Of a DNA stretch of 64,000 bases, positions 38,489 through 39,226 are shown piece by piece. Each line of letters begins with the position of its first letter. The stretch's first letter is position 1. A program made the translations under genes and the position numbers. Location of the stretch: NCBI RefSeq assembly GCF_013122565.1, contig NZ_CP053258.1; one strand, written 5' to 3'. Below the pieces are notes generated by a model. It saw nothing but the letters and a program-made list of their open reading frames with translations, was not told the origin of the DNA and searched no databases. The stretch is from Escherichia coli. GTDB lineage: Bacteria > Pseudomonadota > Gammaproteobacteria > Enterobacterales > Enterobacteriaceae.

Positions 38489-39226
38489 ATGTCACAGTCT
38501 ACATCCGTGCTTCGTCGTAATGGATTTACTTTTAAACAGTTTTTTGTTGCTCATGATCGCTGTGCGATGAAAGTGGGAACGGATGGCATATTGCTGGGTG
38601 CATGGGCACCGGTGGCTGGGGTAAAACGTTGCCTTGATATCGGCACTGGTAGCGGGTTGCTGGCATTAATGCTGGCGCAGCGAACCGATGACAGCGTGAT
38701 GATTGATGCAGTTGAACTGGAAAGTGAAGCTGCCGCGCAGGCGCAGGAAAATATCAACCAGTCCCCGTGGGCAGAGCGGATTAACGTCCATACGGCGGAT
38801 ATTCAGCAGTGGATCACACAGCAGACAGTACGCTTCGATTTAATCATCAGTAACCCACCTTACTATCAGCAGGGAGTAGAGTGCGCGACACCTCAACGGG
38901 AACAGGCTCGCTATACCACTACGCTTGATCACCCATCGCTGCTGACCTGTGCGGCGGAGTGCATTACCGAAGAGGGATTTTTCTGCGTAGTGCTGCCAGA
39001 GCAGATTGGTAATGGTTTTACTGAACTGGCATTAAGTATGGGCTGGCATTTACGTTTGCGGACGGATGTGGCGGAAAACGAAGCGCGACTGCCGCATCGG
39101 GTGCTGCTGGCATTCTCCCCGCAGGCGGGAGAATGCTTTAGCGATCGCTTAGTCATTCGTGGGCCAGACCAGAACTATTCCGAAGCGTATACGGCGCTGA
39201 CCCAGGCTTTTTATCTGTTTATGTAA
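38489..39226 (+). CDS. trmN6: tRNA1(Val) (adenine37-N6)-methyltransferase (YfiC/TrmN6)
   Basis: ORF track 38369..39226; ATG at 38489 gives [23 protein letters not shown]..., 245 aa; SAM motif DIGTGSG and NPPY. Confidence 0.88.

Follow-up and report, generated by a model that had tools for sequence, protein, structure and literature searches.

Three tail-to-tail gene overlaps in the Escherichia coli core chromosome: ordinary stop-codon geometry, overlapping transcripts and a 16-nt nadB/trmN junction held constant in Enterobacteriaceae

Short overlaps between the 3' ends of convergent genes are a familiar feature of the E. coli genome, in which Lillo & Krakauer (2007) counted 58. In that survey the modal convergent overlap is one of the tetramers CTAA, TTAA, CTAG or TTAG, which explains the 4-nt mode; the overlaps were assigned an origin in stop-codon mutation, terminators were stated to lie within the coding sequence of the neighbour, and a terminator was predicted for 23 of 116 convergently overlapping genes. 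At the RNA level, Conway et al. (2014) reported overlapping 3' ends for 276 of 370 convergent E. coli operons (mean overlap 286 nt), and transcript overlap is therefore the norm for this arrangement. ExcludonFinder (NAR 2025) mapped transcript overlap in MG1655 from 58 RNA-seq data sets and lists 165 convergent excludons, defined by overlapping transcripts in at least 50% of those sets. Two further systems bear on how such transcripts end: the bidirectional terminators and collision model of Ju et al. (2019), which according to the summary given by Wang et al. (2022) apply to hundreds of E. coli convergent pairs, and the suppression of antisense read-through by Rho (Peters et al. 2012; Adams et al. 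2021).

The DNA analysed here (the window, 64,000 nt) spans the nadK to glnB segment of the E. coli core chromosome. It corresponds to approximately 2.69-2.75 Mb of K-12 in reverse orientation, and thousands of complete E. coli genomes match it at 98-99% identity. RefSeq/PGAP gene models of strain H14 were placed on the window, each open reading frame (ORF) was checked for its start, stop and internal stops, and the junction bases of the convergent pairs were read directly. A first-pass annotation had claimed three convergent overlaps of 16, 4 and 4 nt, and both the mapped models and the junction bases bear this out: in trmN/nadB, kgtP/yfiM and tadA/mltF, genes on opposite strands have 16, 4 and 4 stop-proximal bases in common, and all six ORFs are intact. 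Identical overlaps are annotated in strain 104, H14 and K-12 MG1655. The partners are genuine genes, with RefSeq names in the three genomes and orthologues or homologues (TrmN, NadB, YfiM, KgtP, TadA). The window contains ten convergent junctions, and the seven without an overlap have spacers of 42-208 nt. From the count of 58 given by Lillo & Krakauer, approximately 0.8 convergent overlaps are expected per 64 kb; the three observed (Poisson P approximately 0.05) are a marginal local excess that is not meaningful once the reader's selection of the case is considered.

In most respects these junctions match what has been described. They share with the overlaps of Lillo & Krakauer (2007) and Fukuda et al. 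(2003) a short 3'-3' geometry, modal tetramers at two of the three sites (TTAA and TTAG) and an origin that fits loss of a stop codon followed by read-through to the next antisense stop; there is no essential difference, and the detail added here is a 16-nt nadB/trmN overlap fixed at the family level. Table 1 of ExcludonFinder includes all three pairs (as mltF-tadA, nadB-yfiC and yfiM-kgtP), so that published data already place each of them among convergent excludons by transcript overlap, whereas none of the other seven convergent pairs of the window is in its convergent list. As in convergent excludons (Sesto et al. 2013; ExcludonFinder), neighbours have overlapping transcripts, and double-stranded RNA (dsRNA) cut by RNase III occurs at kgtP/yfiM. 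The defining feature of excludons is, however, mutually exclusive expression; the present pairs are known by their overlap, which arises from coding-sequence (CDS) geometry rather than from long untranslated regions. A transcriptional-interference data set (PMC10349824) does not mention the six genes. We regard the three junctions as an ordinary arrangement, in which core housekeeping genes of E. coli that are unrelated to each other overlap tail to tail. The overlaps and their transcript overlap are already catalogued and their interpretation is not new; the small addition made here is the family-level fixation of nadB/trmN and its explanation at the level of codons.

The features of the trmN/nadB junction are as follows (window coordinates here and below).

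38489-39226, plus strand: trmN (yfiC/trmN6) CDS, tRNA1(Val) m6A37 methyltransferase; C-terminus FYLFM-stop, stop codon TAA
39211-40833, minus strand: nadB CDS, L-aspartate oxidase; tail ending in SPGNNYINR-stop, stop codon TAA
39211-39226, both strands: dual-coding trmN/nadB overlap of 16 nt, TTATCTGTTTATGTAA, from the junction bases read directly

The C-terminus of NadB is well defined. The protein matches PDB 1CHU/1KNP over residues 412-540, and the sequences deposited with the E. coli and Salmonella NadB crystal structures extend through the same C-terminus. The domain common to NadB, SdhA and FrdA stops near residue 520, which leaves the last 20 or so residues of NadB as an appended tail. 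A scan of species-representative genomes with TrmN was used to follow the junction through its 80 closest loci, all from Enterobacteriaceae (approximately 20 genera, TrmN identity 71-97%). nadB lies convergently downstream of trmN in 79 of the 80, and in 76 of these 79 the overlap is exactly 16 nt; in the three exceptions the nadB tail is frameshifted but still stops in the 3'-terminal part of trmN, giving 8, 8 and 12 nt of overlap. The TrmN tail is FYLFM-stop in 79 of the 80 loci and FYIFM-stop in the other.

This constancy can be read from the codons. Read on the opposite strand, the final base of the trmN Phe codon and the two leading bases of its Tyr codon ((T/C)TA) form the nadB stop, and any synonymous choice for Phe-Tyr (TTY-TAY) yields an antisense TAA or TAG. 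The overlap is thus fixed at 16 nt because the invariant Phe-Tyr codons of TrmN always spell an antisense stop. The wobble positions of trmN and nadB coincide in this register, and both proteins can therefore be maintained. Within the 16 nt, the only bases that vary are those at the shared wobble sites, at position 1 of the Leu codon and in the trmN stop (TAA, TAG or TGA), the last of which determines whether NadB has Tyr or His at position -4. The final four NadB residues ([HY][IM][NK][RK]) are accordingly an antisense read-out of the TrmN C-terminus. In Intestinirhabdus alba nadB is absent and the TrmN tail is still FYLFM-stop, from which we conclude that the constraint belongs to TrmN. The nadB codons adjoining the overlap, upstream of the trmN stop, are hypervariable in every codon position, and in all 79 Enterobacteriaceae species nadB continues into the overlap. 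This combination is not expected under strict neutrality, since a tail that could be dispensed with entirely should be free to end earlier; selection may act on the length of the tail or on the overlap itself.

The two 4-nt junctions have the following features.

25507-26805, plus strand: kgtP CDS, alpha-ketoglutarate permease (mapped gene model)
26802-27125, minus strand: yfiM CDS, YfiM-family lipoprotein (DUF2279) (mapped gene model)
26802-26805, both strands: 4-nt overlap TTAG; kgtP stop TAG, yfiM stop TAA (junction bases)
53386-53889, plus strand: tadA CDS, tRNA adenosine(34) deaminase (mapped gene model)
53886-55442, minus strand: mltF CDS, membrane-bound lytic murein transglycosylase F (mapped gene model)
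53886-53889, both strands: 4-nt overlap TTAA, the stop of tadA and mltF alike (junction bases)

The kgtP/yfiM comparison drew on 44 usable junctions, taken from four genome contexts and from metagenomes scanned with a DNA pattern, in which YfiM identity is 52-100%. A 4-nt overlap is found in 22 of the 44 and a spacer of 0-5 nt in 21, the remaining one (L112) being a script artefact. The two stops always abut (-5 to +4 nt), so there is never space for an intergenic terminator. The TTAA overlap of tadA/mltF is also present in Enterobacter kobei and Pseudescherichia vulneris, and thus in three of four genera; Salmonella enterica instead has a 50-nt spacer containing a REP-like hairpin. Since the C-terminal tails of TadA and MltF are unrelated between genera and TTAA recurs, this overlap is a recurrent state and not a conserved sequence. 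Abutting genes settle at a 4-nt overlap because TTAA and TTAG are stops on both strands.

The first-pass annotation had also argued that no terminator can sit between such pairs and that each transcript must extend into the antisense of its neighbour. Its first statement holds in part: no terminator fits between the genes, but 3'-end signals occur inside the coding sequence of the neighbour. Consensus scans found no canonical hairpin plus U-tract terminator in the first 110 nt or so after any of the six stops. All 36-nt windows on both strands were folded, and the first 110 nt past each stop were compared with the rest of the window, giving a regional P for each flank. Unusually stable hairpins are present in four of the six flanks (nadB, kgtP, tadA and trmN; each P ≤ 0.1, binomial approximately 0.001), all within the neighbour's coding sequence and all lacking a U-tract. 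The best hairpins in the other two flanks are unremarkable (yfiM -8.6 kcal/mol, regional P = 0.89; mltF -11.6 kcal/mol, regional P = 0.52). The features beyond the stops are as follows.

26804-26826, both strands: p19-captured RNase III duplex annotated 'kgtP yfiM'; the sequence of Huang et al. (2020) maps exactly, across the junction
26832-26849, plus strand: hairpin 1, perfect palindrome GCCGGUGCUUGCACCGGC in the kgtP 3' untranslated region within yfiM; 3' end at 26856, 7 nt after the stem
26879-26900, plus strand: hairpin 2, AGCCGCUCC-CUUC-GGGGCGGCU, in the kgtP 3' untranslated region within yfiM; -17.3 kcal/mol
39110-39136, minus strand: GC-rich 10-bp hairpin (GCAUUCUCCC...GGGAGAAUGC) without a U-tract; candidate nadB 3'-end structure
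39248-39282, plus strand: trmN 3' hairpin with core CCGGAA...UUCCGG and no U-tract; 22-56 nt beyond the trmN stop, within nadB
53905-53935, plus strand: tadA 3' hairpin without a U-tract; 16-46 nt beyond the tadA stop, within mltF
54179, plus strand: peak of a Rho-dependent termination region on the tadA strand (Adams et al. 2021, converted coordinate)

The 3' ends are best documented for kgtP. The Term-seq data of Adams et al. (2021) place the dominant kgtP-strand ends at K-12 2724397 and 2724366, in the class 'antisense yfiM'. When the published end sequences are placed on K-12 and on the window, these ends fall at 26856 and 26887, 51 and 82 nt beyond the kgtP stop and inside yfiM. Ends upstream of the stop codons had been named in the first-pass annotation as a sign of wrong C-termini; the kgtP ends are downstream, the stops are unambiguous and the C-termini are conserved. 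The first end follows the stem of hairpin 1, and the second sits in the 5' arm of hairpin 2 (regional P = 0.055 for the kgtP 3' flank), a position that a simple picture in which a hairpin protects the end does not explain. Across the surveyed junctions, pairing of hairpins 1 and 2 is kept in 83% of cells, whereas sliding one arm lowers the figure to 30-56%. The columns involved are, with few exceptions, invariant coding positions, and covariation is minimal. yfiM codons with their wobble base in a hairpin arm show less synonymous variation than the others (0.34 versus 0.50, P = 0.03, n = 10 versus 19), and hairpin 2 pairs better in the kgtP sense than in the opposite sense (85.5% versus 77.5%) because of G-U pairs. 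These alignment-based comparisons are weakly suggestive of selection on the structure of the kgtP RNA but are not proof of it.

Overlap of the two transcripts has a measurable product at this junction. Huang et al. (2020, supplementary file 7) captured RNase III-generated duplexes of approximately 21 nt with p19, and in addition to the duplex spanning the kgtP/yfiM junction, others from this source lie deeper in yfiM (26918-26938) and in kgtP (26339-26361). Among the matches listed, there are none for nadB, yfiC, tadA or mltF. yfiM is situated directly behind the pssA terminator (a hairpin at 27166-27146 plus a T-run, followed by the yfiM Shine-Dalgarno sequence), and the kgtP 3' ends carry high read counts in the data of Adams et al. 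(2021); for these two reasons, any interference at kgtP/yfiM is probably one-sided.

For the tadA transcript, supplementary file 2 of Adams et al. (2021) reports a bicyclomycin-sensitive region at K-12 2697064(-) with a Rho score of 9.6 (P = 2e-18), and its peak is 290 nt beyond the tadA stop, antisense to mltF. Because it is bicyclomycin-sensitive, this end is Rho-dependent. A weaker Rho region lies within mltF on mltF's own strand (window 54138), and the hairpin that follows the tadA stop has a folding energy of -16.8 kcal/mol (regional P = 0.069). The claim that transcripts extend into their neighbours is thus upheld by the excludon listing of all three pairs, by the kgtP 3' ends in yfiM and by the tadA Rho region in mltF, but such extension is not specific to pairs whose coding sequences overlap. 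Rho regions antisense to srmB, yfiE, ung and yfiF (Adams et al. 2021) show that in yfiE/srmB and yfiF/ung, two well-spaced, non-overlapping convergent pairs of the window, transcripts extend 270-480 nt into the opposing gene. Overlap of the coding sequences is not what decides the matter, since read-through of this kind also occurs at these pairs. The tadA, yfiE, srmB, yfiF and ung transcripts all follow the pattern described by Peters et al. (2012) and Adams et al. (2021), in which untranslated antisense RNA past the stop is terminated a few hundred nucleotides downstream. The resemblance does not extend to nadB/trmN or to the yfiM strand, for which Adams et al. (2021) report no such region. 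In the same data no 3' end or Rho region was found past the stops of nadB, trmN, yfiM or mltF, and there is none within 300 nt of the nadB/trmN junction (K-12 2711700-2712299).

The candidate nadB hairpin lies 75-101 nt beyond the nadB stop, within trmN, and at -18.4 kcal/mol is in the top 0.2% of 36-nt windows (regional P = 0.036). It was rejected as a family-wide structure: the E. coli register pairs in 61% of cells, a value equal to that of shuffles. Its 6-bp core is paired in 86% compared with 84% in shuffles, the pairing being owed to invariant columns. Covariation likewise gives no support to the trmN 3' hairpin (-15.8 kcal/mol, regional P = 0.10), which is paired in 72% of cells against 71% in shuffles over the 80 loci. 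We make no claim that an RNA structure is under selection at nadB/trmN.

These observations are very probably explained by three ordinary overlaps that result from stop-codon geometry, with mRNAs that end inside the neighbouring genes and a sense-antisense overlap that is unavoidable. nadB reads into the antisense of the invariant FYLFM-stop codons of TrmN and stops there, and each mRNA of the three pairs would end within its neighbour's coding sequence. The kgtP and tadA transcripts do run into their neighbours, the tadA end being Rho-dependent and dsRNA being formed at kgtP/yfiM; we infer that the nadB, trmN, yfiM and mltF transcripts also end inside theirs. Untranslated read-through from these four genes is most likely stopped by Rho, and the hairpins lacking U-tracts after the nadB and trmN stops may pause polymerase or stabilise 3' ends. 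Head-on polymerase collisions may contribute to termination at the overlaps, and at kgtP/yfiM the sense-antisense overlap gives rise to dsRNA that RNase III cuts.

A larger role for collisions is conceivable, although we consider it rather unlikely. Under the model of Ju, Li & Liu (2019) and Wang et al. (2022), the embedded hairpins would pause both polymerases, and head-on and trailing collisions would release them without Rho or a U-tract. Consistent with this, such hairpins lie just beyond four of the six stops, the kgtP 3' end at 26856 follows by 7 nt a perfect palindrome able to form a hairpin on either strand, and the model, in the summary cited above, covers hundreds of convergent E. 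coli pairs. As in those pairs, the 3' ends of the convergent transcripts overlap and GC-rich hairpins that lack U-tracts are close to them. The elements so described, however, are located between genes and are Rho-independent, whereas the candidate hairpins here are inside coding sequences and the tadA end is bicyclomycin-sensitive and so departs from Rho-independence. Comparable hairpins are absent past the yfiM and mltF stops. At kgtP, where palindromic hairpins are near the 3' end, 3' ends are mapped on the kgtP strand only; the location of yfiM behind the pssA terminator is taken to mean weak transcription and few head-on collisions.

We find it improbable that the pairs are selected excludons, in which a gene would be held down by transcription of its partner, through colliding polymerases, digestion of the duplex by RNase III or both, such that, for example, NadR-controlled nadB and trmN, or kgtP and yfiM, are expressed mutually exclusively. 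Membership of all three pairs in the ExcludonFinder core set would fit, and ExcludonFinder reports that excludon pairs, taken together, show less frequent co-expression in single cells and greater synteny, but these single-cell expression statistics are class-level and not pair-specific, and the functions of the partners are unrelated. dsRNA does form at kgtP/yfiM; the mean signal of p19-captured dsRNA is much weaker at convergent overlaps than at divergent ones. Conservation also points both ways. The nadB/trmN overlap is kept in 76 of 79 loci with no nadB stopping earlier despite a hypervariable tail, but TrmN's own constraint accounts for the conserved nadB stop, FYLFM-stop being kept where nadB is missing. 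kgtP and yfiM have remained abutted throughout YfiM identities of 52-100%, but 21 of 44 junctions have small spacers instead of an overlap, and the tadA/mltF overlap is lost in Salmonella (50-nt spacer). Finally, non-overlapping convergent pairs show read-through of this kind as well.

Related to this is the view that nadB/trmN is an anciently fixed dual-coding module under active selection and not a passive by-product, with kgtP likewise using the yfiM-embedded hairpins as a 3'-end signal; we hold this to be slightly less probable still. If true, NAD biosynthesis would be linked to the m6A37 modification of tRNA1(Val), either through nadB translation that continues as far as the end of trmN or through antisense pairing that cannot be avoided. 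That one C-terminus in each pair is misannotated and no true overlap exists has a negligible probability and we reject it: stop codons set the 3' ends of ORFs and both frames are open to their stops, the TrmN tail is invariant and the YfiM and KgtP tails are conserved, the NadB crystal-structure entries (E. coli and Salmonella) include the same C-terminus, and the kgtP 3' ends are downstream of the kgtP stop, not upstream.

The overlaps have little importance beyond bookkeeping: they are annotated in reference genomes, their transcript overlap has been published, and the general consequences (terminators inside coding sequences, Rho clean-up of antisense read-through and excludon-type interference) are established topics. 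Their modest value is as a worked example of how convergent overlaps are locked, in which invariant C-terminal codons spell the partner's antisense stop, and of tail-to-tail junctions that remain without a spacer throughout an entire bacterial family. Should interference be demonstrated for individual pairs, these would offer handy natural systems in which to test models based on collision or on RNase III.

The same-strand overlaps of 1-11 nt listed in the first-pass annotation, which were proposed to reflect translational coupling, are all real according to the mapped gene models: yfiR/dgcN (11 nt), rluD/yfiH (pgeF; 4 nt), rseA/rseB (1 nt), rseB/rseC (4 nt), rnc/era (4 nt), pdxJ/acpS (1 nt) and qseG/glrR (11 nt). 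The window also contains a 4-nt same-strand overlap between rseD and rpoE that was absent from that list. In E. coli, Huber et al. (2023) found that reinitiation requires overlaps or very short spacers, with modal classes of -4, -1 and -8, and on the basis of that work translational coupling is well supported as a general phenomenon for -1 and -4 overlaps. None of the window pairs is among those tested by Huber et al.; by class, six resemble the termination-reinitiation pairs (rseA/rseB, pdxJ/acpS, rluD/yfiH, rseD/rpoE, rseB/rseC and rnc/era, all -1 or -4), whereas yfiR/dgcN and qseG/glrR (-11 nt) are less typical and fall outside the modal -8, -4 and -1 classes.

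Bicyclomycin-sensitive (Rho) termination regions have been published at positions equivalent to window 33394, 34031, 36652 and 37291, on the strand opposite yfiF, ung, yfiE and srmB, respectively. Each is located 270-480 nt past the stop codon of the converging gene, indicating that convergent pairs without overlap also transcribe into each other. The convergent yfiE/srmB spacer is 208 nt in length (window 36815-37022) and contains two inverted REP elements that form a BIME-like pair:

36872-36906, REP element, first of the inverted pair
36942-36970, REP element, second of the inverted pair

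In E. coli strain 104, this spacer is only 32 nt in length, so the site shows a presence/absence polymorphism.

The pssA/yfiM boundary has the following features:

within 27123-27173, minus strand, strong intrinsic-terminator-like hairpin (AACCCCGUCCUGUACGGGGUU followed by a U-run), directly after the pssA stop codon
27137-27133, minus strand, yfiM Shine-Dalgarno sequence (GGAGG), at most about 10 nt beyond the hairpin
27125, minus strand, yfiM start codon (TTG), likewise at most about 10 nt beyond the hairpin

Because the hairpin and U-run directly precede the yfiM Shine-Dalgarno sequence and start codon, yfiM transcription must arise either from read-through of this terminator or from a promoter within pssA. 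A 'primary pssA' Rho-region entry is located at the equivalent of window 27137 (Adams 2021).

Within kgtP, a strong Term-seq 3' end is found at window 25664 on the plus strand, in the 5' part of the gene (157 nt into the ORF). Farther along, p19-captured dsRNA at window 26339-26361 is dominated by antisense reads (1873, against 196 sense reads). Together these signals hint at premature termination in kgtP and at opposite-strand transcription across the gene, either as an antisense RNA or through long read-through from yfiM/pssA.

The degree to which the window differs from reference E. coli changes along its length, with three more divergent stretches:

33810-36814, more divergent stretch
39211-40833, more divergent stretch
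52693-53328, more divergent stretch

Identity to strain H14 is only approximately 95-96% for ung, eamB, yfiE and yfhb/pgpC and 96.4% for nadB, while most neighbouring genes are 98-100% identical. This patchiness suggests recombination patches. For window 38000-40500, none of the 5,426 genomes in the collection exceeded 98.4% identity.

On the same strand, the rseD stop and rpoE start share 4 nt (ATGA type, window 41241-41244), an overlap absent from the list in the first-pass annotation; rseD encodes the rpoE leader peptide.

Intestinirhabdus alba (locus L029, 3239-5735) lacks nadB at the position between trmN and the operon rpoE-rseABC. Escherichia sp. ESNIH1 (L035, 3225-3260) has a short stretch at the 3' end of trmN duplicated in tandem, with TCTCTTTATGTAGT repeated; this alters the nadB tail and reduces its overlap with trmN to 8 nt. 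An enterobacterial trmN/nadB locus (TrmN identity 82%) is also present on a contig labelled Chryseobacterium sp. 18061 (L041), an assembly that is probably contaminated or mislabelled. In Salmonella enterica (L209, 2353-2402), tadA and mltF are separated by a 50-nt spacer containing a REP-like GCCGGATAAGGCG hairpin, in contrast to the 4-nt overlap in E. coli.
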